From contig JANTFM010000001.1 in the NCBI GenBank assembly GCA_024763475.1, positions 7,879-71,878 on the forward strand: a DNA stretch of 64,000 bases. The letters run 5' to 3'. Origin of the DNA: Acidobacteriota bacterium. Lineage in GTDB: Bacteria > Acidobacteriota > Polarisedimenticolia > J045. The notes below the pieces were generated by a model. It made no database searches and was not told the DNA's origin. It saw only the letters and a list, made by a program, of their open reading frames with translations. Made by a program: the position numbers and the translations under genes. Below, piece by piece: positions 1,128 to 15,339 of the stretch. Positions within the stretch are counted from its first letter, which is position 1. Every line of letters begins with the position of its first letter.

Positions 1128-2378
1128 CTAGCCTTCCTCCCCTGTGTCGACCCAAGCCAGCAGGCGCCGCTCGCCCTCGAGCGCGCGCAGCCGGGTCAAG
1201 TCCTGGGTCACTTCGAGGCAGCCGAGATAGTCCTTCTGCGGATTGCGTACCGCGAAGTAGCGAATGTGCACGAAGCGAGGACCCATCTGGATCCAGAACT
1301 CCGCCACGTCTTCCTTCTGGCTCCTGAAGTCGGCGAGGATGCGCTCGACGATGTGCACGCTGTGCGGGGGATGGCAGTTGTGCACTTTCCGCCCGATGAT
1401 CGAGTTGGTGCGCGGGAAGACCCGGTCCGGACCTTCCGAAAAGAAGCCCACGCGATCGTCGGCGTCGACGAAGGTCATATCGAAGGGCAGGATGCCGAGG
1501 ATGCTCTTCAGCTGCTCTGGAGTGACCTGTCCCGTGCCCAGCGCCACGGCCGCTGCAGCCGCCGACTCTGCGCTCGGGTCCGGCGTGGCGGGCTCGGCTG
1601 GCGAGTAGCCAAGATTCGGCTTCACCAGGCAATAGCCGTAGCGCTTACCCTCCCGGTAGATAGCCCCCCACTCGTCAGGCTCGAGCAGATCGAGGGCCGC
1701 CGGGAGGAGAATCTTCTCCTCCTTGAAGATCATCTCCAGCATCGCCGCGAGGAGGGGGGTGGCGACGTGCTCTCCGACGAGCTGCCATTCCCCGAGCCCC
1801 GCGCTCTCCTCCGCGAGGGCCTGTCGCAGCGCTCGGAGCATCTCGCGGACGTCATCGTCCTTGGCCCACATCACCTGGGACGGCCCGGCCACGCCGTGCT
1901 GCTCGAGGTGGGGGAAGACGAGGTTCTCCTTGCGGGCGTAGTGCTTCTCGATCTCCAGCAGCTTCTCGGTGCTCTGCCGCCAGCGATCGATCAGGCTCTC
2001 GAGTCCGTCCGTCGATTCCCGTCCGCTGAGCTCATCGAGGAGCTCCTGCATCTCGTCGATCGCGTGAGTGATCGCGGTGTTCTCCCGTCGGAAGGTGTCC
2101 ACCGGGTGTCCCAGAGGGATCGGCGGATCGACGGGTGCGCTGAGCACCTCCCTCACGACCTCGGAGTGCAGGTCGCACATGGCCTTGATCTCGGAGGGAT
2201 CCATGCCCTCCTCAATCAGCTGATGTTCCATGGCGACGATCTCGTCACTTGTCGTCTCGCTCACCAGCGCGCTGAGGCGCGCCTTGACAAATTCCGGGGT
2301 TTCTCCCGTGTGGAGGCCGGTGATGACCTGCTTGAGCTGTTCGATGCGTTTCTGACGGTTGTTGATCAGTTCGGACAT
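1128..2378 (-). CDS. DUF438 family protein (hemerythrin-like cation-binding + PAS-like sensor domains)
   Basis: 416-aa ORF. The N-terminal region (EIVAMEHQLIEEGMDPSEIKAMCDLH), the hemerythrin-like H/E-rich core and the C-terminal PAS-like region match DUF438 architecture. It sits immediately upstream of a DUF1858 gene, a known pairing. Confidence 0.65.
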   Translation of the reverse strand: MSELINNRQKRIEQLKQVITGLHTGETPEFVKARLSALVSETTSDEIVAMEHQLIEEGMDPSEIKAMCDLHSEVVREVLSAPVDPPIPLGHPVDTFRRENTAITHAIDEMQELLDELSGRESTDGLESLIDRWRQSTEKLLEIEKHYARKENLVFPHLEQHGVAGPSQVMWAKDDDVREMLRALRQALAEESAGLGEWQLVGEHVATPLLAAMLEMIFKEEKILLPAALDLLEPDEWGAIYREGKRYGYCLVKPNLGYSPAEPATPDPSAESAAAAAVALGTGQVTPEQLKSILGILPFDMTFVDADDRVGFFSEGPDRVFPRTNSIIGRKVHNCHPPHSVHIVERILADFRSQKEDVAEFWIQMGPRFVHIRYFAVRNPQKDYLGCLEVTQDLTRLRALEGERRLLAWVDTGEEG

Positions 2379-2538
2379 ATTGGCTCTCCATCGTGGGAGG
2401 GATTCGAGTGCGGATGGTCGTGAGCTTCATGCGATGTTGTCGCGCTTTGTCGGGAAGATGCACCCGATCACTATCCGTACCGGCCAAATATTGTGGATTG
2501 CCATGCGTGCCGGGAGCGCGCGCGGTACCTTCCGCAGC

Positions 2539-4758
2539 ATGACGCCTTACAGAAAAACGGCCTGCCGCGCCGCTATTGTGCTCTTCCTGCTATCAACCTG
2601 GGTGGTTTCGACCCAGGCCCAGATCCGCGTGCTCTTCGATGCCTCACACCGCGAGAATGCCGCGAACGCGGACTGGGTGATCGATGCGGACTCCTGGGAT
2701 CTCAACCAGGAGCACTATCCTTGCGGCCAGTGGGCGAACGAGGCCCACGCACAGCGTCACCCGACGCCGAGCCAGTACCTGGTGGAGCCCGACGACGCCG
2801 AGACGATCTGGACGGGCGCCTTCTCGGCCTTCGGTATCGACCTGGTCAAGCTGGGATACGAGCTCGAGTCCCTGCCGGTCGAGGGCCGCGTGAGCTACGA
2901 AGATCCCACGAACGAACAGGATCTCTCGCTCTACGACATCCTCGTTCTCCCGGAGCCCAACCTACCGTTTAGCGGGGAGGAGATCCTGGCGATCCGGGAC
3001 TTCGTCCAGGACGGGGGCGGGCTCTTCTTTATCGCCGACCACCAGAGCTCCGACCGGGACTGCGACGGCCATGATTCGCCGCACATCGGAAACGATCTGA
3101 TGGGGGTCGTCATCAGCGGCGGCGTGATCACCGACGCCGGGCTTTTTGGAATCGTTTTCAACGTCGAGGAGATCGCCGGGCTCGGGGATGCTGACTACTG
3201 GTTCACGGATGGCGTGGACGACAACGTGTCGCCGGACCTCGACGATCCGATCATCCACGGGCCCCACGGGGATGGAAGCGGGGGACTCGGCCTCTTCGGC
3301 TCGACGGCAATGACCCTCGACAGCGGTGCTAACGCCACCGTACACGCGCACATTTGGAAGAGCGATGCACCCGAGCAGGGCGATCAGAGAGTGACCTTTG
3401 CCACGGCATGGTACGGACTCGGACGCATCGCCTGCATCGGGGACTCGTCTCCCGCCGACGACGGTACCGGCGACACCGGCGACAGCCTCTACGACGGTTG
3501 GGACAAGGCCTCCGGCGGCGTCGCCAACCGTGAGATCCACCTGAACGCGATCGCGTTTCTCGCCGACGCGCCCGCGGACGAGACGCCCCCCGCCAAGGTC
3601 CAGGACCTCCTCGCAACACCCCTGAGTGGAAGCAGCGTCCGGCTGGAGTGGACGGCGCCGGGTGACGACGGCAACAGCGGCCGCTCCCAGAGCTACGACA
3701 TCCGCCGCTCATCCTGGCCGATCCTCACGGACGCCGAGTTCGAGGTGGCCACAGCCCTCGACGGCGAGCCGTCTCCCTCGGTTGCCGGTACCCCAGAGAG
3801 CTGGACGGTCACCGGTCTCGACCCGGAGACGAGCTACTGGTTCGCCCTCGTGGCCCTCGATGATTTCTCGAACGTTTCGGAACTCTCGAACTCCAGCGCA
3901 GCCACCACCGGAGACGCGGGAAGCGGCGGAGCTCCCGGGGCGGATCACCTCGTGATCAGCGAGGTGCAGACGCGGGGCGTCTCCGACCACAACGACGAGT
4001 TCATCGAGCTGTTCAACCCCACGGACCATGCGGTGGATCTCTCCACCTGGAGCGTGCAATACAAGAGTTCGAGCGGCACGACCTACTTGAAGTTCGATCT
4101 TCCTGTGGCGGCATCGATCGCAGCCTACGGCTACTACTTGGTCGCGCGCCCCGAGTACACCGGCAGCGTGACGCCCGATGCCGAGCAGAGCGTCTTCTTG
4201 ATGGGGGCCTCCGGCGGCCACGTCTTCCTCGTGGATGAGCAGCAGGGCCTCGGCAGCTGTACCGACTCGTCGATCATCGACAAGGTCGCTTGGGGATCGG
4301 GCAACTGCCCGGAGGGCCGTACGGCCATCGCGCATGGAGCAGGGGAGTCCATCGAGCGCGCCCCGGGTGCCACGGATCCGGAGTGTGGCAACGGAGAGGA
4401 CAGCGATGATAACGAGGCGGACTTCGACGTGCGGCAGCCGGCCGACCCGCAGAACAGCAGCCAGAGCGAGGGACCCTGCGGGCCAGGCGGACTTGGCCCC
4501 GTGGGCGACTCGCTCGTTCTCGGGAGCTCCGGAGAGGACTCCCTCGACTGGGCCTCCTCTGTCGGCGCGGCGACCTACAAGCTTCGCCGCTCACCACAGG
4601 CCGACTTCATGCAAACCCACCCCGTCCCCGACGACACCTGGCTCCTCGAGCAGCTCCCGGGCACGCACACCGTAGATCTCGCCCAGCCAGATCCCGACGG
4701 CGCGTTCTACTACTTCGTCAACGCGGTGGGCACCGAAGGCGCCGAGTCTGCGAACTAG
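2539..4758 (+). CDS. Secreted multidomain protein: N-terminal domain of unknown function, fibronectin type III domain, lamin-tail domain (LTD)
   Basis: Start is placed at MTPYRKTACRAAIVLFLLSTWVVSTQAQ (signal peptide); the 5' extension back to 2359 is rejected. The FN3-like segment is SSVRLEWTAPGDDGNSGRSQSYDIRRS...TSYWFALVALDD. The LTD-like segment is LVISEVQTRGVSDHNDEFIELFNPTDHAVDLSTWSV...YYLVARPEY. Confidence 0.65.
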   Translation: MTPYRKTACRAAIVLFLLSTWVVSTQAQIRVLFDASHRENAANADWVIDADSWDLNQEHYPCGQWANEAHAQRHPTPSQYLVEPDDAETIWTGAFSAFGIDLVKLGYELESLPVEGRVSYEDPTNEQDLSLYDILVLPEPNLPFSGEEILAIRDFVQDGGGLFFIADHQSSDRDCDGHDSPHIGNDLMGVVISGGVITDAGLFGIVFNVEEIAGLGDADYWFTDGVDDNVSPDLDDPIIHGPHGDGSGGLGLFGSTAMTLDSGANATVHAHIWKSDAPEQGDQRVTFATAWYGLGRIACIGDSSPADDGTGDTGDSLYDGWDKASGGVANREIHLNAIAFLADAPADETPPAKVQDLLATPLSGSSVRLEWTAPGDDGNSGRSQSYDIRRSSWPILTDAEFEVATALDGEPSPSVAGTPESWTVTGLDPETSYWFALVALDDFSNVSELSNSSAATTGDAGSGGAPGADHLVISEVQTRGVSDHNDEFIELFNPTDHAVDLSTWSVQYKSSSGTTYLKFDLPVAASIAAYGYYLVARPEYTGSVTPDAEQSVFLMGASGGHVFLVDEQQGLGSCTDSSIIDKVAWGSGNCPEGRTAIAHGAGESIERAPGATDPECGNGEDSDDNEADFDVRQPADPQNSSQSEGPCGPGGLGPVGDSLVLGSSGEDSLDWASSVGAATYKLRRSPQADFMQTHPVPDDTWLLEQLPGTHTVDLAQPDPDGAFYYFVNAVGTEGAESAN

Positions 4759-4813: not shown

Positions 4814-5009
4814 GAATATGCTCGAATTATCGGTGGCGCGAGACGGGTTCTCCGTTCGCGAGCTTCGTGTGTCCATGGGCTCCGGGACCATCACCCAGGT
4901 TGATTAACGTTCCCGAGAATATGCTCGAATTATCGGTGGCGCGAGACTGGTTTCTCCGTTCGCGAGCTTCGTGTGTTCATGGGCTCCGGGACCATCACCC
5001 AGGTTGATT
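4814..5009. repeat. Two direct copies (~93 bp each; 4814-4905 and 4917-5009; ~97% identical with one 1-nt indel) of an intergenic element
   Basis: Read directly: GAATATGCTCGAATTATCGGTGGCGCGAGAC(G/T)GG(T)TTCTCCGTTCGCGAGCTTCGTGTGT(C/T)CATGGGCTCCGGGACCATCACCCAGGTTGATT. Located between the LTD gene and the XRE regulator. Confidence 0.85.
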
Positions 5010-5095
5010 GACCTTCCCGGCGCACCCATGTGGGCAAAGTGGCAAATAACCACTCCACAGGCTCCCCGACGCATAATTTTTGCGCTACACTGACG

Positions 5096-5113
5096 TGTCC
5101 ATATCTGTGGACA
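5096..5113. promoter_or_regulatory. Inverted repeat TGTCCA-N6-TGGACA in the promoter region of the HTH_XRE regulator (candidate operator)
   Basis: Sequence gtgTGTCCAtatctgTGGACAtatg lies ~30 nt upstream of the GTG start at 5140 in a locally AT-richer stretch. Confidence 0.25.
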
Positions 5114-5139
5114 TATGATGCGAACCCTGTGAGCTACCT

Positions 5140-6336
5140 GTGGACCGATCTCCTACCAGCCAATCCTTGAGCGAGTGCCCCCGTGATCGGGCGGGCTCTT
5201 ATCTGCGGGGTCTTCGCAACGACCGCGGGCTTAGTGTGCGCAGGCTGGCAGGATCTTCGAGGGACACGTCGTCCGGATTCGAGAAGAGTTATGTAGCCAA
5301 GCTCGAGGCGGGGAACATTCCTGTCCAGGTGCAGAAGTTCCTTACCTACATGCGCTTGGTGGGCGCCAGTGTCGATTACCTCAGCGAGTGCCTTGAAACG
5401 GCTGTCCCTGTCTCGCCTCAGGTCGTGGAACTCGGAGTAGACGAGCTTCTCTCTCATGTGAAGGAATGTGTCAGGACAGGGGATCACGAGCAGGCGATGA
5501 GGTGGGTTTTCTCGGCTCTTGAGCGCTTCGAGCCGGATGATGTTTCTTCGGAGAAGGTGACCCTCCTCAGGGCCGGCGGAATCGTGGCCAAGCACATGAG
5601 TCTCTGGGAACTCGCGAAACGATTTGCGGAGGATTCCCTTAACGTACCGGGGATCACGCGTCTCGAGCGCGCGAAGACACTCCTTCTCTTGGCCGAGGTC
5701 TACTCGGCGATGGGCCAGCCGGAAAGCGCGAAGATTCATCTCCAGCAGATTGGAGAGGCAGAACTCCGAGCCAACCAGAAGCTCCGCCGAGGCTTTCATC
5801 ATAATTATGGCCTCGTCCTGCTGGACTCGGCGCGACCGGAAGACAGGCAGGAGGCGGAGCTTTCGCTGCGCCTGGCTCTGGAGGAGTACGAGAAGAGTCA
5901 GGAGAACTTGCCCGATCACGTCTGTGTGCTGGTGGTGCTGAGCCGGGCCAGTCTCGAAGCGGGTCAGCTCGACCAGGCTAAGAGCTACATCGAAGACGCT
6001 CTTGAGCGTGCAGATGCTGCAAATGATGAACGAGGCTGGCAGCGTGTGCTGATTGCGCAGGGACGGGTTTGTGCGGCGCGCTTGCGGATGGACGAGGCCT
6101 ACGCTCATCTGAGCGAGGCAGTGAAGCGCTCGCGTCGGGCGAACAACACGACCAACTGCTTCGAGGCGCAGCTCGAATTGCTTGCGGTCTGTATCTCGCT
6201 CGGACGCCAGAGCGAGGCGGAGCGCCTGCGTGCAACGCTTCGTCGGCAACAGCATCGCGTTCGACTGGATGCGGCATCCATGCAGAAGTCCCGTCGTCTC
6301 TTGGGCGATGGCGGCGCAACAGGAGGGAGCGTATGA
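5140..6336 (+). CDS. Transcriptional regulator: N-terminal HTH_XRE (Cro/C1-type) + C-terminal TPR-like domain (RRNPP-like architecture)
   Basis: GTG start. The HTH is YLRGLRNDRGLSVRRLAGSS...SGFEKSYVAKLEAGNIPVQVQKFLTYMRLVGASVDYL. The remaining ~300 aa are alpha-helical TPR-like repeats (AELRANQKLRRGFHHNYGLVLL, LEAGQLDQAKSYIEDALERA, etc.). Confidence 0.65.
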   Translation: MDRSPTSQSLSECPRDRAGSYLRGLRNDRGLSVRRLAGSSRDTSSGFEKSYVAKLEAGNIPVQVQKFLTYMRLVGASVDYLSECLETAVPVSPQVVELGVDELLSHVKECVRTGDHEQAMRWVFSALERFEPDDVSSEKVTLLRAGGIVAKHMSLWELAKRFAEDSLNVPGITRLERAKTLLLLAEVYSAMGQPESAKIHLQQIGEAELRANQKLRRGFHHNYGLVLLDSARPEDRQEAELSLRLALEEYEKSQENLPDHVCVLVVLSRASLEAGQLDQAKSYIEDALERADAANDERGWQRVLIAQGRVCAARLRMDEAYAHLSEAVKRSRRANNTTNCFEAQLELLAVCISLGRQSEAERLRATLRRQQHRVRLDAASMQKSRRLLGDGGATGGSV

Positions 6337-7091
6337 GGGGCACTCCTCTGCTGTCGCGCGTTTCCCTTCTCCTCCTGCTCGTCAGCCTGTTTTCTTTGCT
6401 GTCCCCGGTGCAGGCTGACACTCAGGCGGCCATCGCGACGAATCCCGAAACCGGGAGGGTCGAGAAGGTCTGGCCCGAGTGGGACGGCAACGACTACGAG
6501 ATTCACTGGGCCGAACACATCAACGGTGAGTGGGCCCATGAGGCGGTTCTCACCGACAACGACGTCGACGACGTCGCTCCGCACCTTAGTCACAACGCGG
6601 GCGGTGCGACGGCCGTCGTCTGGAAGCAGGGCGGTACGGTATCGCGCATCTACTACCGCGCGAGAAAGCAGGTCTCAGGGACGTGGACGTGGCAGAGTGC
6701 CGCGACCCCGATCAGCGGCACAACCTACAACGCGTCCGCGCCCTGGATCTGCTTCGATTCCTCAGGCGATCCTTTCGTCGCCTATCGCGAGACAGGATCT
6801 GGCAGCAGCACACGGGTGATGAGTGGCGGTGGGGATGGGACGGACCCCTGGGATCCGGGATTTGCGCCGGTCTTGGTCTCAACGACGAGCTACACCGACA
6901 ATCTCCACCTCTCGGTACGTGCAGAGACTACTCATGTCTGGGTCGATTGGGTCGATTCGAGTACGCAACTCGCCTACTCGGAATGGGACACAACCAACGG
7001 CTCTTGGGGAACTCTCGCGTCCGAGAACTACTCCGGTGCGTCCGACATTCAGCCAGGAAAGGAACGCATCAGGAGCGCTATCACAGAGTGA
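6333..7091 (+). CDS. Secreted protein of unknown function (signal peptide; W/Y/T-rich, probably beta-rich), translationally coupled to the regulator
   Basis: The ATG at 6333 overlaps the regulator's TGA (ATGA), with AGGAGGGAG 6 nt upstream. The N-terminus MRGTPLLSRVSLLLLLVSLFSLLSPVQA is a signal peptide. The long 5' extension (from 6069) is antisense-free but overlaps the regulator and is rejected. Confidence 0.5.
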   Translation: MRGTPLLSRVSLLLLLVSLFSLLSPVQADTQAAIATNPETGRVEKVWPEWDGNDYEIHWAEHINGEWAHEAVLTDNDVDDVAPHLSHNAGGATAVVWKQGGTVSRIYYRARKQVSGTWTWQSAATPISGTTYNASAPWICFDSSGDPFVAYRETGSGSSTRVMSGGGDGTDPWDPGFAPVLVSTTSYTDNLHLSVRAETTHVWVDWVDSSTQLAYSEWDTTNGSWGTLASENYSGASDIQPGKERIRSAITE

Positions 7092-7298
7092 AGACGCTGC
7101 GGGCGCGCCCAAAGGGGGGGCGCAGTGGCTCGGAGAAACGGACCGTGGCCCCGAGTCACGTCTTCGGTTGCGGTCCATTCATTCGACGTCCGGGCTCCCC
7201 TGGGAGGGATGGTTCCCTCCCGACAGGTCTTGAGAGCCCTTCGGCCGACATCCCTTGACGACGAGGGACATGAGTCTCTCGGCGCGTCTCGAACGCGG

Positions 7299-7950
7299 TC
7301 ACTTCGTCTCGCGCCGTCGAGCCGTCACGAGTGGCGCCGGCAGAGTCGTCGCGAGGCGTCGGATGGGTGGGGGACTGGTCTCACTCTTCCGGGGTAGAGA
7401 CAGCGCTATGACCCCGAAGAGCGGGAGGACTGCGACGCCCGGTTTCTTGGAGAAGAGGATGCCCGCAAGGAAGAGTGCGGATCCTGCCAGAGCGATCCAG
7501 GATCCCGATCGGAGCTGACGAGCGAAGGCGATCAGGCTGGCCAGCAGAAAGGCGGGCATCATCAGATCGGAACGCCCCGAGGCCCAGGTGACGGACTCAA
7601 CACGAACCGGGTGCAAGGCGAAGAGCAGGCCGCTGGCGCCGCCCATGGCAAGTGCGCGGGCCGGGTCGAAGGAAGCGAATCCACTCAGGAGGACGGTGAG
7701 TCCTGCAAAGAAGGCGCTGACGAGGGCGTGCAGCCCCACGCTTGTCCGGAAAGAACGCGGGAGTTCCGACTCCAGCTCGAGGCCACCCGCCTCGAGCGCT
7801 CCGCCGTGGCCGCCCCCCCACGAGCAGGCCGACGAGGATCGCAGCGACGAGCATCACAGGTGGCGAGTGAACAGAGAGCTTCAACGCGGACCTCCGAGGA
7901 CCTTGCACAGGGATTCCAAGCTCGACAATGGACTCCGTGAGTTTCCCTTG
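7299..7950 (-). pseudogene. Fragment of a TMTC/DUF1736-type (PMT-like, GT39-related) membrane glycosyltransferase gene; N-terminal ~150-200 aa only, frameshifted and truncated
   Basis: ORF 7299-7739 encodes ...FALHPVRVESVTWASGRSDLMMPAFLLASL..., matching the HP-H-ESVAW-s-R-D motif of DUF1736/TMTC N-terminal domains. An upstream TM helix (VMLVAAILVGLLVGG) is in a different frame (ORF 7597-7908), with a C7 run at ~7812-7819. The remaining ~400 aa expected downstream are absent. Confidence 0.35.
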
Positions 7951-8259
7951 CCACCAACGCTGCCGCTCCCCCGGACGCTCGGGGCTGGTAGCAGAGGCTC
8001 GTCAAGAATAACGACAAACTAGGGTCTGAGCAGAGTAATAGTTCGCAATAGCCTGGGACTATCCGGAGTGATTCAGATGTGACTCAAGGACTGGCTTCTT
8101 GTCAATGTACACGTATGATCCCGACTTGCCGTTCCGTCTGTAGGGAACAGATTCCACCACAGGGAAGCAATGGAACACACCGGGAGCTGCTGCGGGGGCG
8201 CTTCGGGCGTGAGATGTCCCGTTCTGTCGTGTTGGACGAGAGAGCGGCCCACGAGGGGT

Positions 8260-11200
8260 ATGCAAGCCATGATGAAGATCGCAAACGCCGTTCTGCTGTC
8301 CGCAATCCTGCTCACAAGCGTGGGCTTCGCTACGCCCGCCCTGGCCCAGGTCGGAATCACGATCACGAGCCCCGCGGATTACGTCGAAGGAACGCTCGAG
8401 CTGTCCCCGGCGACCATGCCCTACATCGACCGCTCCTATCCCTATACAGCCGCGCCCGAGTTCTACCTTTCGTTGCAGACGGTCCGCACGGCCAATCGGG
8501 ACCGCTGGGACGAGAGCGAAGATTACCTGGTCTTCGAGGTTGACCGTCCGGTGACGGTTTACCTGCTCTACAGTTCCGAGGCGGCGAGTGCGCCAAACTG
8601 GGTGGCGAGCACCTTCACCCAGAACGGTGATCAGATTTCCCGGAACTACCACACCTGGAACGTCTGGCAGCGGGACTACCCCGCGGGCCAGGTCATCCTC
8701 GGCGGGAACATGGCCCCCGGCGCGGTGGCCATCGAGGGCGGCAGCATCGCAATGTTCAGTGTCGTGGTGGCCGAAGCCGACGAAGCGCCTGGGAATCGCC
8801 CGCCCGCCATCACCTCCGTCCCGGTGACCACGGCGACCGAGGGCGTGCTCTACACCTATGACGTGGAGGCCAGTGATCCCGACGCGGGTGATGTCCTCAC
8901 CTACTCCCTCGACACGGCACCCAGCGGCATGATCATCGATGGCGCGAGCGGCCTGATCGAATGGACACCGGACGCCAGCCAGGTTGGAGATCACGCGGTA
9001 ACCGTCCGCGTCGAGGATGGCGAGCCCCTCGCGGACACCCAGTCCTACAACGTGACGGTCTCTCCCGATACACCCGTGGATGACCTGGTGATCACGATCA
9101 CCGCCCCCGCCGACTACACGGAGGGCACGCTGGAGATTTCTCCTGCGACACGCCCCTATATCGACCGTTCCTACGTCTACATCGCGGCGCCCGGCCACTA
9201 CCTGGGACTACCGACCGTCCAGACCGCGAACCGCGACCGTGCGGAGACGACGACCGACTACCTGCACTTCGAGATCAACAAGGCCTGCATCGTCTACGTC
9301 CTCTACAGCTCGGAGGCTGCCAGCGTACCCGCCTGGCTCTCAGGCAGCTTCACGCAGAACGGCGACCAGGTCTCCCGCAACTACCACACCTGGAATGTCT
9401 GGCAGCGCCGTTACCCGGTGGGCGAGGTCGTCCTCGGTGGCAACCGGGCACCCGGCGCCGAAGCCATCGCCGGTGGTGCGCTCGGCATGTTCAGCGTGGT
9501 CGTCGAGGAGGCGCTTGGCCCGGCAGCAGAGTTCAGCGCCACACCCCGGAGCGGAGATTTGCCTCTCGAAGTGAGCTTCACCGACGAGTCCGATGGGAAC
9601 GTGACGACCTGGTCCTGGACCTTCGGCGATGGCGAGATGAGTACCGAACAGAACCCGGTGCACAGCTACGCCGAGGCTGGCAGCTATACCGTGACGCTCG
9701 AGGTCAGCGATGCCGACGGGAGCGACACCGTCACGAAGACGGATTACATCAGCGTCGTGGATCCCGCGCTCAACCAGCCGCCGGTCATCAGCTCGACTCC
9801 GGTCACGACCGCCGAGGTGGATAGCGCCTACAGCTATGACGTGGAGGCGGACGATCCAAACGCGGGGGATACGCTGACCTACTCTCTCGACATCTCACCG
9901 AGCGGCATGGTGATTGATTCGGTGAGTGGCCTGATCAGCTGGACTCCCACCGCGAGCCAGGTGGGAGACCACGCCGTCACGGTACGCGTCGAGGACCAGG
10001 AGGCCGCGGCCGACACGCAGAGTTACACGGTCACCGTCACCGACGATTCAACCCCCGTCGCTCTGGAGATCACGATCCTCAGCCCCGCCGACTACGTCGA
10101 AGGGACGCTCGATCTGCATCCCGCGAGTCGACCCTACGTGGATCGCTCCTACGTCTTCACCGCGGCTCCGGAACGCTATATCGGCCTGCCGACCGTGCGG
10201 ACGGCAAACGCGGATCGTGGCGAGACCAGCTTGGATTACCTGCGCTTCGAGGTGAACAAGACTGTCAACGTTCTCGTCTGCTACAGCACCCAGGCGGCGA
10301 GCGTGCCGGACTGGCTCAGCAGCCGCTTCACGCAGAACGGCGACCAGATCTCTCGCAACTACCACGACTGGAATGTCTGGGAGGCGCGCTTCGCGCCGGG
10401 TGAGATTGTTCTCGGTGGAAACAGCGCCCCTGGAGCGAGCGCGGTGGCGGGCGGTACGATCGCGATGTTCGCTGTCGTCGTGGAAGAGAGCAGCGGCCCG
10501 GCCGCGGCCTTCTCGGGAACGCCGCGAAGTGGAAACCTGCCCCTCGAGGTGAGCTTCACGGATAGTTCTACCGGCCCGGTGGACAGCTGGTCCTGGACCT
10601 TCGGCGACGGCGGGATGAGCACCGAGCAGAACCCGGTCCACAGCTACGCCGCCGCGGGCCTCTACACGGTGACGCTTGACGTCACAGGAGCCGAAGGATC
10701 TAACACCAAGACCGAGACCGACTACATCGAGGTGATCGATCCGAACGTGAACCAGGCGCCCGAGATCACCTCGGCTCCGATTCTCTCGGCCGTCGTCGAC
10801 ACGCTCTACAGCTACGACGTGGACGCCGAGGATCCGGACGCCGGTGATGTGCTGACCTACTCGCTGGATACGGCGCCGGTGGGCATGGTCATCGATCCGG
10901 CGAGCGGCTTGATCGAGTGGACTCCCGATCTCTCCCAGGTCGGTGACAACGATGTCGTGGTTCGCGTCGAGGACCAGGATCTCGCGGCGGATACCCAGAG
11001 CTTCACGATCAGCGTGAGCGATGGCTCTGAGCCGCTACCTCTCGAGATCACCATCCTCACCCCGGCAGACTACGCCGAGTCGGAGCTCAGGCTCGCGCCG
11101 GGCGCGTCGAAGACCTACATCGACCGCTCCTATGTCTTCACCGCAGCCCCCGAGCGTTTCGTCGGCATGGCGGTGATCCAGACGGCGAATCGCGACCGGC

Positions 11201-14200
11201 ATGAGAGCTCCGAGAACTACCTGAGCTTCGAGGTCAACCAGGCCGTCAACGTCTACGTGGCCTACAGCACCCAGGCCGCGAGCGCCCCGGACTGGCTGAG
11301 CGCGAGCTTCACCCAAATCGGCGAGCAGGTCTCGCGGACCTACCACAGCTGGAACCTCTGGCAGGCGCGCTACGGCGCGGGCACCATTGTCCTTGGTGGC
11401 AACGAGGCCCCCGGATACGAGGCCGTCTCCGGCGGATCCATCGGGATGTTCGTGGTGCTCGTCGAGCCGGCGGGCGGCCCGGCTGCGGACTTCTCGGCGA
11501 CGCCGCTGAGCGGATCGACCCCGCTCGAGGTGAGCTTCACCGATCTTTCCGATGGCAACATCTCGAGTTGGGCCTGGGACTTCGGGGATGGTGGAAGCAG
11601 TGACCTGCAAAACCCGACCCATACCTACTCCAGCGAGGGAAGCTACACCGTCACGCTGAGCGTGGACGGGGCTGACGGAGCGGATTCGCTCGTGCGGACG
11701 GACTATATCCACGCAACCGACCCCGCGAACAACGAAGCACCGACGATCACCTCGACACCGGTCACCTCGGCGATCGTCGGCGAGCTCTATACCTACGATG
11801 CCGAGGCGACGGATCCGAACGGTGACACCCTGACCTGGTCGCTGGATACGGCGCCGGTTGGGATGAACATCGATTCGGTGACGGGAGTCATCGACTGGCG
11901 TCCCGACGCAGGACAGGTCGGCGACCATCAGGTCGTCGTGCGGGTGGAGGATCCGCTGGCTGCCGCAGACACCCAGAGCTACACCGTCACGGTCAGTGAG
12001 GCGTCCTCCAGCCAGGAGCTGACGATCACGATCCTCACACCGGCGGACTACCTCGAGTCGACCCTCGAGATCGACCCCGCGACCAACCCCTACATGGATC
12101 GCGCCTATCCCTTCACCGCCGCGGGGGAGCACTACATCGGCCTGCCCGTGGTGCAGACGGCGAATCGCGATCGCTACGAGGATTCCGAAGACTACTGTAC
12201 CTTTGAGGTCAACAAGCCGGTGTGGGTCTATGTCCTCTACAGCACCGAGGCGGAGACGGCTCCCGACTGGCTGGAGCTCAACTTCACCAAGACCAACGAC
12301 CAGATCAGCCGCCGTTATCACACCTGGAATGTCTGGAAGCGCCAGTATCCTGCCGGGGTGGTAACCCTCGGGGGCAACGAAGCTCCGGGCCTGGTCATCC
12401 AGGAGGGCGGCTCGATCGGCATGTTCAGTGTGGTCCTCGAGGAGCTCGAGGTCCCGTTCGCTGACTTCAATGCGGTCCCCGTGGCGGGAGCCCCACCGCT
12501 TGCCGTGGCCTTCGAGGACAGGTCGACCGGTGGGATCAACAGCTGGCTTTGGACCTTCGGTGATGGAGAAACCAGCAGCGAGCAGAACCCCGTACACACC
12601 TACAACGAGCTCGGGCTCTACACCGTGACCCTCGACGTGAGTGGCTACGCCGGTTCGGACAGCCGCACGCGCACGGAATACATCAACGTCACCAACGATG
12701 AGATCAACGAGTCACCGCAGATCACGTCATCGCCGATCACCCAGGCCATCGCAGACGAGCTCTACAGCTACGACGTGGAGGCCACGGATCCGAACGCCGG
12801 GGATCTTCTCGAGTACTCTCTCGACAGCTCGCCTTCGGGCATGACGATCGACAGTGCGTCCGGCCTGATCCAATGGACGCCGAATTCCGGGCAGGTCGGC
12901 TCCCACGAAATCGTCGTGCGGGTCCAGGATGGTGGAGGGCTCTACGACACCCAGGCCTACTCGATTCTCGTCGATGTGGCGCGCGTGCCTTGGATGCACG
13001 CCTTCTGGGACCATCGCCAGATGCTCACGATCGACAATCCCTGCGGGGAGGTTCAGAGCGGGAAGCCTGTCCGTATCGATCTGGACTCGACTTTCGATTT
13101 CTCACGTGTCGCCGCGGACGGTCATGACCTGCGCGCGACCCTCGATGACGAAATCACCGAGATTCCCCTGTGGATCGAACACTGGAACGCCGACGCGCAG
13201 AGTGCGACGGTCTGGGTGCGCCTGCCGACGCTGCCTGCGGACGGCACCTCGATCTACTTCTACTCCGGATACGAGGAGGCCCAGGCGCGCGTCCGGGCTG
13301 CGAGCGTCTTCGATCTCTACGATGGCTTCGAGACCGATCCTCTCGGCCGCGTGGCGGCCGGCGAGCGAGACAATCCCGGCCAGTGGTCCCGGGTGGGCGA
13401 GGCCTCGCTCATTGAGTCCGGCGCTCCGGGTAGCTGGGATGCCTCCGGCGTGCGGGTCACCAGCGTCATCTGGGACGAGGATGAACTCGAGTATCGTGCC
13501 TACTACGAAGGTGTCTCGGACAGTGGCGATCAGCGCATCGGCGTCGCCTTCTCGCCGGACGGCGAGCGCTGGACCACCTGGCGCGATGGCTACCTGCTCG
13601 CTCCCGATGCGGGCAGCTGGGACGAGAGCGGCCTCTACGCACCGGTGGTCTGGCGGGAAGGTCCCGCGGACTACCGCATGCTCTACACCGGTGCTGGAAG
13701 CTCCGGGCGCCAGATCGGCCTGGCCACATCGCCGGACGGCCTGGTCTGGACGAAGAGCGTGGACAACCCGGTCTTCAACGATCCTGACTGGGCGCACGGC
13801 GACACGAACGGTGGCGGTGTCATCCGCGTCGACGGCGAGTACCTGATGTGGTACGCAACCGGCGGCTCTGGTGAGTCGGGAATCGCCGTGTCGACGGATC
13901 TCGTCAGCTGGAGCCCGTACCAGCCGGCGCCGATCTTCCCCAGCGGCGGCCTGCCGCAGGAGCGGAGCTGGTCCCGGGTGGCGTCGCAGACGTTCCGCCA
14001 TGGCAGCGACTACTACGTCTTCGTGAACGCCAGCGACGAGAGTGGCGCCCACGGCGAAGTCGATCTCTACCGCTCCTCGAGTCCCTACTTCCCGGATGCG
14101 GATCGCCACTTCGTGCGCACCGTGCACGTTCCGGGCCCGGAAGGCGAGTGGGACTCGTCTCACAGCGGCCCCTTGATGGTCGTCACTACGGGTATCGAGG

Positions 14201-15339
14201 CGCTCGCACTCCACGACGGACAACTTCGCGCGTACTACGCGGGCCGGAGTCCTGCCGGCATCTGGAGCTCAGGCCAGCTGAGCGAGGGCGATCTCGATGT
14301 GGCGCTTTCCGACGCTGCCGCCGCGACGACCTCCCTGGGCTGGGTGTTCAGCGCGAACGCCGCGACAACTCAGCTCGAAGCGCGGGGCGGGACGAAGTCC
14401 GTACGCCTCGCCGACGCGGATCCAGCCCTGAGCGAGGACGCTGTGGCCACCTTTGCCGGCCAAGGCGAGGGCCGGGTCGCTGCGTGGATGAGGCGTTCGG
14501 GTGCGAGCAACGGAGCGTTCGACCTGCGTCTCTTCGACGGCAACGACTTTGCCGCGTCTGCAGGTTTCGGAGCGGACGGCTACTTCCAGTTCTGGAACGG
14601 GTCGAACTTCTCCACCACCATTCCCTGGTCCAGTGATGAGTGGTACCTGGTGGAGATCTTCTTCGACACGCTGATGAGCACCTACGACGTCACGATCTTC
14701 GATGCCAACATGGTGGAGCTGGGGAGCTACACCGATATCGGCTTCGAACTGCCGGTCACCAGCATCAACAAGGCGTCGCTCTGGACCAGCGAGGGTCTCG
14801 TCGAGGATGTCTTCTTCGATGACTTCCGCGTGGAGGCCTTCTGCGGAGCCGACCCGGCGGGGACCCTGGGTATCGAGGAGGATCAGCCGCCGCTCGAGTT
14901 CGCGCTCACGCTGCTCGACTTCCCCGAGGGGTACTACACGAGCACGGTCTCACTCTCCCCGGACAACAAGTACACCTACTTCGATCGATCCTACATCTTC
15001 GAGGCTGCGCCGCCCGAGTATCTCGGTCTGCCATATATCGCGACCGCGGTGCGCGATGACCTTGCGGACGACGAGGAATGGATCACCTTCCACGTCAACC
15101 GTCCGGTGACGGTCTATGTCGGCTACTCCAACACCCAGGTGGCGAAGGCCCCGAACTGGATCAACCATCACTATCAGGAAAACGGCAAGGAGGTCAGCCG
15201 CACCTTCTGGACCTGGCAGGTCTGGGAGCGGGAGTTCCCCGCGGGTCGCATCGTCCTCGGCAGCAACGCTGCGGCAGGAACCGTGGAAGGGCACATCACC
15301 AACTACACGGTGATCATCGAGGAGCGCACGAAGCCATGA
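8260..15339 (+). CDS. Giant secreted multidomain surface/adhesin-like protein (2359 aa): 6 copies of an uncharacterised ~150-aa module, 4 PKD domains, 5 cadherin-like (dystroglycan-type) Ig domains, DUF2341, GH43/GH32-like five-bladed beta-propeller, LamG/ConA-like region
   Basis: Start is at MQAMMKIANAVLLSAILLTSVGFATPALAQ (signal peptide); the upstream extension from 8170 is rejected. The PKD domains have the form PLEVSFTD-S-G-V-SWSWTFGDGE-S-EQNPVHSY. The cadherin-like domains have the form Y-YDVEA-DPDAGD-LTYSLD-AP-GM-ID-SGLI-WTP. The DUF2341-like segment is IPLWIEHWNADAQSATVWVRLPTLPADGTSIYFYSG. The propeller-like blades have the form IGVAFSPDGERWT...YAPVVW...GLATSPDGLVWT...YLMWYATGGSG. A long open frame with no internal stops over 7 kb at ~68% GC supports a real gene. 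Confidence 0.8.
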   Translation: MQAMMKIANAVLLSAILLTSVGFATPALAQVGITITSPADYVEGTLELSPATMPYIDRSYPYTAAPEFYLSLQTVRTANRDRWDESEDYLVFEVDRPVTVYLLYSSEAASAPNWVASTFTQNGDQISRNYHTWNVWQRDYPAGQVILGGNMAPGAVAIEGGSIAMFSVVVAEADEAPGNRPPAITSVPVTTATEGVLYTYDVEASDPDAGDVLTYSLDTAPSGMIIDGASGLIEWTPDASQVGDHAVTVRVEDGEPLADTQSYNVTVSPDTPVDDLVITITAPADYTEGTLEISPATRPYIDRSYVYIAAPGHYLGLPTVQTANRDRAETTTDYLHFEINKACIVYVLYSSEAASVPAWLSGSFTQNGDQVSRNYHTWNVWQRRYPVGEVVLGGNRAPGAEAIAGGALGMFSVVVEEALGPAAEFSATPRSGDLPLEVSFTDESDGNVTTWSWTFGDGEMSTEQNPVHSYAEAGSYTVTLEVSDADGSDTVTKTDYISVVDPALNQPPVISSTPVTTAEVDSAYSYDVEADDPNAGDTLTYSLDISPSGMVIDSVSGLISWTPTASQVGDHAVTVRVEDQEAAADTQSYTVTVTDDSTPVALEITILSPADYVEGTLDLHPASRPYVDRSYVFTAAPERYIGLPTVRTANADRGETSLDYLRFEVNKTVNVLVCYSTQAASVPDWLSSRFTQNGDQISRNYHDWNVWEARFAPGEIVLGGNSAPGASAVAGGTIAMFAVVVEESSGPAAAFSGTPRSGNLPLEVSFTDSSTGPVDSWSWTFGDGGMSTEQNPVHSYAAAGLYTVTLDVTGAEGSNTKTETDYIEVIDPNVNQAPEITSAPILSAVVDTLYSYDVDAEDPDAGDVLTYSLDTAPVGMVIDPASGLIEWTPDLSQVGDNDVVVRVEDQDLAADTQSFTISVSDGSEPLPLEITILTPADYAESELRLAPGASKTYIDRSYVFTAAPERFVGMAVIQTANRDRHESSENYLSFEVNQAVNVYVAYSTQAASAPDWLSASFTQIGEQVSRTYHSWNLWQARYGAGTIVLGGNEAPGYEAVSGGSIGMFVVLVEPAGGPAADFSATPLSGSTPLEVSFTDLSDGNISSWAWDFGDGGSSDLQNPTHTYSSEGSYTVTLSVDGADGADSLVRTDYIHATDPANNEAPTITSTPVTSAIVGELYTYDAEATDPNGDTLTWSLDTAPVGMNIDSVTGVIDWRPDAGQVGDHQVVVRVEDPLAAADTQSYTVTVSEASSSQELTITILTPADYLESTLEIDPATNPYMDRAYPFTAAGEHYIGLPVVQTANRDRYEDSEDYCTFEVNKPVWVYVLYSTEAETAPDWLELNFTKTNDQISRRYHTWNVWKRQYPAGVVTLGGNEAPGLVIQEGGSIGMFSVVLEELEVPFADFNAVPVAGAPPLAVAFEDRSTGGINSWLWTFGDGETSSEQNPVHTYNELGLYTVTLDVSGYAGSDSRTRTEYINVTNDEINESPQITSSPITQAIADELYSYDVEATDPNAGDLLEYSLDSSPSGMTIDSASGLIQWTPNSGQVGSHEIVVRVQDGGGLYDTQAYSILVDVARVPWMHAFWDHRQMLTIDNPCGEVQSGKPVRIDLDSTFDFSRVAADGHDLRATLDDEITEIPLWIEHWNADAQSATVWVRLPTLPADGTSIYFYSGYEEAQARVRAASVFDLYDGFETDPLGRVAAGERDNPGQWSRVGEASLIESGAPGSWDASGVRVTSVIWDEDELEYRAYYEGVSDSGDQRIGVAFSPDGERWTTWRDGYLLAPDAGSWDESGLYAPVVWREGPADYRMLYTGAGSSGRQIGLATSPDGLVWTKSVDNPVFNDPDWAHGDTNGGGVIRVDGEYLMWYATGGSGESGIAVSTDLVSWSPYQPAPIFPSGGLPQERSWSRVASQTFRHGSDYYVFVNASDESGAHGEVDLYRSSSPYFPDADRHFVRTVHVPGPEGEWDSSHSGPLMVVTTGIEALALHDGQLRAYYAGRSPAGIWSSGQLSEGDLDVALSDAAAATTSLGWVFSANAATTQLEARGGTKSVRLADADPALSEDAVATFAGQGEGRVAAWMRRSGASNGAFDLRLFDGNDFAASAGFGADGYFQFWNGSNFSTTIPWSSDEWYLVEIFFDTLMSTYDVTIFDANMVELGSYTDIGFELPVTSINKASLWTSEGLVEDVFFDDFRVEAFCGADPAGTLGIEEDQPPLEFALTLLDFPEGYYTSTVSLSPDNKYTYFDRSYIFEAAPPEYLGLPYIATAVRDDLADDEEWITFHVNRPVTVYVGYSNTQVAKAPNWINHHYQENGKEVSRTFWTWQVWEREFPAGRIVLGSNAAAGTVEGHITNYTVIIEERTKP
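8356..13002 (+). repeat. In-frame tandem coding repeats inside the giant gene: unit 1 of 735 bp (8356-9090) then four units of exactly 978 bp (9091, 10069, 11047, 12025), each encoding [unknown module + PKD + cadherin-like]
   Basis: Each unit begins with a recurring (V/E)ITI(T/L)(S/A/T)PADY codon block. The starts were located by hand at 8356, 9091, 10069, 11047 and 12025, giving a period of 978 bp = 326 codons. Units are ~60-75% identical at protein level, i.e. diverged rather than recently duplicated. Confidence 0.8.

Follow-up and report, generated by a model that had tools for sequence, protein, structure and literature searches.

The locus considered here lies near the start of a 64-kb stretch of DNA from an Acidobacteriota bacterium (64,000 nucleotides of contig JANTFM010000001.1; hereafter the window) and consists of two genes on the plus strand. 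The first (5140..6336), recognized from the list of open reading frames (ORFs), Pfam, a family alignment and a family hidden Markov model (HMM), encodes a regulator with an XRE-type helix-turn-helix (HTH) domain and a tetratricopeptide repeat (TPR) domain. The second (6333..7091) encodes a partner protein of 252 aa, for which export and a propeller fold are predicted. The locus is a conserved, self-contained two-gene operon, and both of its genes travel and diverge together in many uncultured high-GC bacteria. We found no description of this regulator-propeller pair in the searchable literature.

Conservation of the gene pair

A metagenome scan with a 10-member alignment of the partner family yielded 41 loci, which were analyzed by means of their ORFs and HMMs of both families. 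Several of these loci are closely related, such that the independent lineages are fewer than the loci, though the clades compared are deeply diverged; eleven loci are cut at the 5' end of the partner gene and are uninformative. Among the 33 loci from metagenomes and metagenome-assembled genomes (MAGs) that have enough upstream DNA, a regulator-family gene is found directly upstream and on the same strand in 29; an earlier note, made from the sequence of the window, had named conservation of the pair in relatives as a check. The two genes are adjacent in any orientation at 31 of the 33, and the regulator is absent at two, L030 and L042, the latter with a propeller gene that looks truncated. Sixteen syntenic regulator homologues, 384-464 aa in length as longest ORFs, are only 16-22% identical to the window regulator yet align with it from the HTH to the C-terminus. 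Because the same pair recurs at 29 of the 33 informative loci with regulators this strongly diverged, the pairing is not a matter of chance. Pairwise identities of the regulators and of the partners are correlated (Mantel r=0.90), with none of 5000 permutations reaching as high a value.

The window contains one copy of each family. On the contig of one relative of the partner (P0003, from MAG GCA_015657895.1), an HTH-TPR ORF lies upstream of the partner homologue, and on the 1-kb contig of another (P0002), the tail of an upstream ORF (35 aa, too short to identify) ends 36 nt before the gene. Variant arrangements were observed as well: the regulator gene is divergent in L023 (3-1142), the propeller gene precedes the regulator gene with a 6-nt gap in L039 (685-2754), and L008 has a second regulator-family gene (3277-4467) 2 kb downstream of a complete pair.

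The regulator and its exported partner

The regulator ORF ends with the stop codon at 6334-6336 and has three candidate starts: GTG at 5140 (398 aa), TTG at 5167 (389 aa) and GTG at 5236 (366 aa). Public start calls differ, Logan giving the 389-aa form (TTG 5167) and NCBI the 366-aa form (GTG 5236); the latter would remove helices 1 and 2 of the HTH and conflicts with the family alignment. Since that alignment requires it, we place the start at or before 5167. The HTH DNA-binding domain (residues 19-79; 5194..5376, plus strand) is matched by HTH_31 with 24.5 bits (Pfam cut-off 27; E=3.3e-5). HTH_31 or HTH_3 is matched in 14 of the 17 regulator homologues in Pfam, with a best E of 3e-10, and we therefore regard the domain as real; it is a Cro/C1-type HTH, as expected of the XRE family, and its profile matches the PDB HTH domains of BldD, DdrOC and ClgR. 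The TPR-like helical repeat domain (approximately residues 100-390; 5437..6309, plus strand) was delimited from Pfam models, predicted helices and a PDB profile search. Its Pfam matches lie above cut-off (TPR_12, 2.5e-11; TPR_19, 5.5e-9; also TPR_14), TPR_2 or TPR_12 is matched in 13-14 of the 17 homologues, and about 13 helices are predicted in a low-confidence model. The combination of HTH and TPRs that the earlier note had read from the translation is thus borne out. The TPR region is probably a sensor, with a putative role in binding a ligand or a partner.

Kyte-Doolittle hydropathy gives no transmembrane-like segment in the regulator. The protein matches the regulator-family HMM with E=1e-113; a word-indexed homologue search returned only the regulator itself, and an NCBIfam scan gave nothing meaningful for either the regulator or the partner, a weak match to SctY, a chaperone of the type III secretion system (T3SS), lying far below its cut-off (E=0.019). 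A 373-aa antisense ORF (5134-6255, minus strand) mirrors the regulator gene, a pattern typical of high-GC DNA; it was rejected as a gene, the family homology being on the plus strand.

The two genes meet in a translational coupling junction (6322..6336, plus strand), which comprises a Shine-Dalgarno sequence, GGAGGGAG, at 6322-6329 and an ATGA at 6333-6336, where the partner ATG (6333-6335) overlaps the regulator TGA (6334-6336). The coupling to the gene of a secreted protein that had been proposed in the earlier note is accordingly present. An identical 4-nt overlap occurs in 17 loci (the window and 16 others); the remaining junctions mostly range from -65 to +36 nt, and L001 has a gap of 414 nt.

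The partner begins with a classical Sec-type signal peptide (residues 1-28; 6333..6416, plus strand), and its export is predicted. The N-terminus, MRGTPLLSRVSLLLLLVSLFSLLSPVQA followed by D, has n-, h- and c-regions, a maximum 10-residue Kyte-Doolittle value of 2.96 and a predicted cleavage site between VQA and D, such that sequence and hydropathy agree with the signal peptide assigned in the earlier note. Hydrophobic N-termini are found in 67 of 74 small members of the propeller family, and in the relatives P0002 and P0003 a Cys directly follows the h-region, suggesting that these two may be lipoproteins. No further hydrophobic segment is seen by hydropathy in the mature partner.

The mature exported protein (about 225 aa; 6417..7091 with the stop codon, plus strand) is predicted to be a four-bladed beta-propeller. 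The AlphaFold2 (AF2) model, built from an alignment of three sequences only, has a predicted local distance difference test score (pLDDT) of 77.7 and a predicted TM-score (pTM) of 0.76, and arranges 16 strands in four groups of four, which are followed by a C-terminal helix. In a Foldseek comparison of this model with the PDB, sialidase and lectin propellers are the top matches, with E ~1e-5, TM-scores on the query (TMq) of 0.50-0.55 and 10-17% identity. The conserved C-terminal amphipathic helix (residues 236-251; 7038..7085, plus strand) was assigned by DSSP on the model (block pLDDT ~78) and from the family alignment. In a 36-member alignment of the family, the motif of this helix, D-I-x-x-A-R/K-x-R-I-R-x-x-V-L, and an N-terminal NPxTGxxE motif are widely conserved, only E44, W203, W206 and W225 are invariant, and no conserved catalytic-type residues are present.

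A word-indexed search with the partner found two relatives, 43-44% identical over their full length, in which conservation extends from the first residues after the signal peptide through the C-terminus; the family profile gave seven matches in such a search. When 1.84 billion cluster representatives were searched exhaustively with the profile, 4814 proteins reached E<=1e-3; at E<=1e-10 there were 935, counted as clusters at 50% identity. About half of the best 150 profile matches are full-length proteins of 205-305 aa, and the rest are large multi-blade proteins. The small family members of 240-310 aa are conserved over their whole length and match no family of Pfam or NCBIfam; some of the large blade-repeat proteins match the BNR_4 and Neuraminidase models. 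As modeled, the partner is a folded propeller and not a pro-peptide. Giant proteins composed of the same blade repeat were also observed (P0005, 2391 aa with 16 matched stretches; P0010, 7019 aa with 14; P0019, 3700 aa with 25), and the proteins of L004 (a cyanobacterial MAG) and L005 (a Rhodopirellula MAG) are of the large blade-repeat type, without an adjoining regulator.

A consensus scan placed a sigma-70-like promoter candidate at 5090..5119 (plus strand; CTGACG, an 18-nt spacer and TATGAT, with 9 of 12 matches), ending 21 nt upstream of the GTG at 5140; the sigma-70 consensus on which it rests may not be the promoter type of the host. Its entire spacer is occupied by a perfect palindrome, TGTCCA-N6-TGGACA (TGTCCATATCTGTGGACA; 5096..5113, strandless), which is a candidate operator for a dimeric HTH. 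This is the sole site with at most one mismatch in the 64 kb (0.10 expected); a regulon search with the palindrome in the window gave four further sites with two mismatches, near chance level. In the clade of L015, L018, L021, L025 and L033, a palindrome of the form GTTGC-N6-GCAAC is found upstream of the regulator gene, inside a block of invariant columns (AGCGTGTTGC-N6-GCAACCCA ... TTGC ... CGTGTATC; 2305-2375 in L015) that looks like a conserved operator plus promoter. The clade of L014, L016, L028 and L032 has the palindrome TTCACAATTGCGAA upstream of the regulator gene. Upstream palindromes in three clades are what would be expected if these HTH proteins acted as autoregulating dimers.

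Directly after the partner stop codon, a GC-rich hairpin without a U-tract (7093..7131, plus strand; RNA fold -22.4 kcal/mol, z = -1.85) is a possible end of the operon, although the terminator scan did not call it. The intergenic region upstream of the regulator contains two tandem direct repeats of ~104 bp (4814-5019), which are 94-97% identical to each other and unique in the window. The left half of the operator-like palindrome, GTGTCCAT, also occurs in copy 1. No Rfam match or folding signal was found in the repeats, and we rejected them as a peptide gene, since the 29-aa ORF of copy 1 loses its frame at an indel of 1 nt between the copies.

Relation to known systems and possible function

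The earlier note likened the regulator to peptide receptors of the RRNPP type. The computational signature of these systems comprises a pro-peptide of 10-100 aa, its export by Sec, a receptor length of 250-500 aa, the presence of TPRs in that receptor and direct adjacency of the two genes; validated pro-peptides have 21-50 aa, and validated gene spacings run from -50 to +191 bp (PMC10075063). Four of these five characters are found here: the partner has an n-h-c signal peptide with a predicted cleavage site, the regulator has 389-398 aa (384-464 aa in its 16 homologues), TPR_12 and TPR_19 exceed the Pfam cut-offs, and the genes overlap by 4 nt. The partner itself, at 252 aa and 240-310 aa across its family, is 2.5 to 3 times the upper limit for a pro-peptide, and no convincing alternative short secreted ORF adjoins the regulator upstream, downstream or in the 414-nt gap of L001. 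A PDB profile search with the regulator was led by consensus TPRs and by LGN, Pins and KLC (LGN, 2.5e-23), with RapJ (3.8e-13), MalT, NprR (1e-9) and RapH (2e-9) lower down; the 60 best matches listed include none of PlcR, PrgX, Rgg and AimR. The hhalign probability of the regulator profile is 0.2% with phi3T AimR versus 90% with an unrelated TPR protein of the same window, and neither the regulator nor its 17 homologues match any RRNPP-specific Pfam model, only generic TPR models. Membership in RRNPP is therefore not supported, although the matches to RapJ, NprR and RapH may reflect a distant homology. Because the partner is, as modeled, a folded protein and no short pro-peptide was found, the pair is RRNPP-like in layout and by definition not a member of RRNPP.

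Among the closest known systems are nevertheless the RRNPP(A) systems of the Bacillota, such as Rap-Phr, NprR-NprX, PlcR-PapR and AimR-AimP. They too have a cytoplasmic TPR receptor of 250-500 aa and form a self-contained unit of two genes, in which the gene of the Sec-exported partner is adjacent and often overlapping (PMC10075063); NprR, PlcR and AimR resemble the window regulator further in having an N-terminal HTH besides the TPRs. They are unlike it in the partner, a pro-peptide of 10-100 aa there and a modeled propeller of 240-310 aa here, and in their hosts, those of the present pair being high-GC, uncultured bacteria with diderm features that do not belong to the Bacillota. RRNPPA has been described only in the Bacillota and their mobile elements, and the root and outgroup of the family are still open (PMC12700828). 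Full-size exported proteins as a source of signals have precedent, as PrgX and TraA (cCF10-type, from lipoprotein signal peptides) and RopB (Vfr leader) are RRNPP-type receptors that sense signal-sequence peptides of such proteins (PMC4173765). The Cys after the h-region in P0002 and P0003, which are close relatives of the window partner, is a further point of likeness to the PrgX/TraA systems. Unlike in those systems, receptor and partner genes here form one operon, and equivalents of Eep or PptAB were not identified. The enterococcal precursor lipoprotein genes (e.g., ccfA) are chromosomal and unlinked to the plasmid-borne receptor gene.

The TPR region of the regulator also has weak matches to those of MalT, AfsR and NsdA. 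TPR_MalT is matched in only 3 of 17 homologues and AfsR with 21.9 bits against a cut-off of 1430, and, unlike in STAND and SARP regulators, Pfam and NCBIfam scans found no STAND NTPase, SARP or LuxR-type domain in the family. Clustering with MalT- or SARP-like regulators together with a loss of synteny, the combination that the earlier note named as telling against its proposal, is thus not what is seen: the matches are weak and below cut-off, and synteny is strong. We know of no obligate exported propeller partner for BldD-type HTH, MalT, AfsR or NsdA regulators. On the side of the partner, the sialidase/BNR_4 and lectin propellers (PDB 7qy9, 8t1y and 5c9o) are similar in blade geometry, a likeness at the level of fold only. 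Sialidases have six blades versus four in the partner model, and the identity to these propellers is about 10-14%. Sialidase/BNR proteins of the GH33 type are further marked by BNR/Asp-box repeats and by a catalytic Arg triad and Tyr-Glu pair; the partner has neither a BNR or sialidase Pfam match nor conserved catalytic-type residues. TPR chaperones of T3SSs become co-activators once their substrate has left, as in IpgC-MxiE and SicA-InvF; like the regulator, these are TPR proteins whose regulatory output is tied to an adjacently encoded secreted partner. They differ from it in having no DNA-binding domain and a T3SS substrate, whereas here HTH and TPRs are fused and the partner has a Sec signal peptide.

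We give somewhat more than an even chance to a self-contained bicistronic operon that controls its own expression, with a TPR domain that responds to a peptide or a protein and a propeller that serves, at low level, as a binding protein of the periplasm or surface. As a dimer, the regulator would occupy TGTCCA-N6-TGGACA in the spacer of its own promoter and so autoregulate the bicistronic mRNA; its DNA binding would be switched when a ligand, peptide or protein, docks on the TPR domain. Owing to the ATGA coupling, the exported propeller would be made sparingly and in constant proportion to the regulator; such amounts suit a protein that binds or senses something in the periplasm or on the cell surface better than they suit a bulk enzyme. 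Of the two roles that the earlier note had offered for the downstream protein, a processed signal precursor or a secreted effector under direct control, the second fits better; a partner that is conserved over its whole length and modeled as folded argues against the first. Its C-terminus is indeed conserved, but within the fold, as a confident helix, and not as the isolated short peptide that had been envisaged.

Several points weigh against an autoregulated operon of this kind. The promoter is known only as a consensus match and the operator only as a palindrome. The Mantel correlation is expected of any linked genes and shows co-inheritance, not interaction, and the single-sequence AF2 model of the regulator, with a pLDDT of 49.7, is too poor to yield the shape of the TPR groove or to serve in a fold search. 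Moreover, a regulator and a plain target are seldom so tightly coupled in translation. Interacting partners would fit better, a fit that is itself awkward, as the regulator is cytoplasmic and the partner exported. The locus represents a large family pair without curated models, with an RRNPP-style gene layout, in uncultured high-GC bacteria of soils and sediments, and on the conservative reading two families of hypothetical proteins gain a name and a testable model, in which a candidate operator and the coupling of translation are combined with a four-bladed propeller destined for export.

Cell-cell signaling of an RRNPP-like kind, in which a piece of the exported partner, released outside, would return to the cytoplasm as the cue and switch the regulator from within its TPR groove, strikes us as unlikely. 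The cue could be the signal peptide, as with the enterococcal pheromones and the Vfr leader for RopB, or the C-terminal helix. Agreement with four of the five signature characters, the precedent for pheromones from full-length exported proteins (PMC4173765), the conserved motif of the C-terminal helix and the profile matches to the TPRs of RapJ, RapH and NprR (1e-13 to 1e-9) are in keeping with it, as are the aspartyl protease-PDZ genes that adjoin the pair in one clade and in L007; the pairing is also kept while other neighbors vary, which suggests a partner and not a mere target. Yet the partner, at 240-310 aa, is conserved throughout and predicted to be folded, no small pro-peptide ORF was found beside the regulator, peptide importers or exporters do not accompany the pair as conserved neighbors, and most clades lack the protease neighbor, as do the window and L001. 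Generic TPR proteins are, moreover, closer to the TPRs of the regulator than RRNPP receptors are, no similarity to AimR and no RRNPP-specific Pfam match were seen, and the restriction of described RRNPPA systems to the Bacillota (PMC12700828) likewise counts against this idea. We are equally skeptical of receptor signaling outside the Bacillota in the broader sense, that is, RRNPP logic in diderm-type hosts where an exported protein of full size takes the part of precursor or co-sensor; the partner would then yield the cue from its signal peptide or C-terminal helix, with the neighboring aspartyl protease-PDZ enzyme doing the cutting in some clades. If the partner feeds back on the regulator, cytoplasmic-receptor signaling would reach further phyla and draw on a precursor of a new kind, and if the signaling reading is true, the regulator family could be a long-sought relative or outgroup of the RRNPPA receptors.

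More doubtful still is a secretion-coupled partner switch, in which, by analogy with the T3SS chaperones, the TPR domain would hold the pre-protein in the cytoplasm and export would free or inactivate the regulator. Translational coupling sets the two proteins at a constant stoichiometry, as is usual among interacting partners, TPR domains are able to bind peptides in extended form, and the weak NCBIfam match to SctY points in the same direction, but that match is far below cut-off, Sec export is fast, and we know of no chaperone-type regulation of this kind for Sec substrates. It is very improbable that the pair is a repressor/effector unit of a mobile element, a phage or an anti-phage defense island, as might be suspected from the varying genomic context, from a G+C content at third codon positions (GC3) below that of the flanking genes and from faint HTH matches to defense-associated HTH models. 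Neither protein has a match among 72,556 plasmids or in the IMG/VR viral contigs, PADLOC defense-system models gave only faint generic TPR/HTH matches (E>=1e-4) and nothing for the propeller, no integrase, transposase or tRNA is found nearby, and the flanks are ordinary chromosomal genes. A fortuitous overlap of two unrelated genes, finally, can practically be discounted: ATGA overlaps are common in compact, high-GC genomes, but the synteny described above, at loci from many samples and with regulators only ~16-22% identical to that of the window, refutes it.

Genomic surroundings

The neighbors of the pair vary between loci, and a search for a further conserved gene beside the two gave none. 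L001 has a TonB-type receptor and a sigma-54 activator beside the pair, L015 and L033 have a SpoU methylase, QueG and PilZ, L035 has a hemerythrin protein, L006 has ComM and DinB, and L031 and L016 have peptidases M2 and M14. The sole recurring neighbor is a secreted protein with Asp_protease_2 and PDZ domains, encoded in L007 (763-2034, minus strand), L028 (3-2411, plus strand) and L032 (729-2645, plus strand) and, as found by phmmer, in L014 and L016, that is, in the clade of L014, L016, L028 and L032 plus L007. This protein could be a clade-specific processing enzyme.

The window is ordinary chromosomal DNA, and no tRNA or rRNA is present in its 64 kb. Among the diderm-type features of its genes are a TonB_C domain, a BcrAD-type activase and an NrfD/4Fe-4S complex. 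The GC3 values of the pair are 0.69 and 0.75, versus 0.82-0.86 in the flanking genes, which could reflect horizontal acquisition or low expression. Upstream of the pair is a gene for a secreted-type protein of 799 aa with LTD and fn3 domains (2359-4758). On the minus strand at 7299-8017 there are broken ORFs of 146 and 110 aa, multi-pass-membrane-like and without a Pfam match, which are probably a gene remnant between the pair and a giant adhesin-like gene. The latter (8170-15339) encodes a secreted-type protein of 2389 aa with five PKD/He_PIG units, DUF2341 and a GH130-like stretch, and is followed by a gene for a Polysacc_synt flippase.

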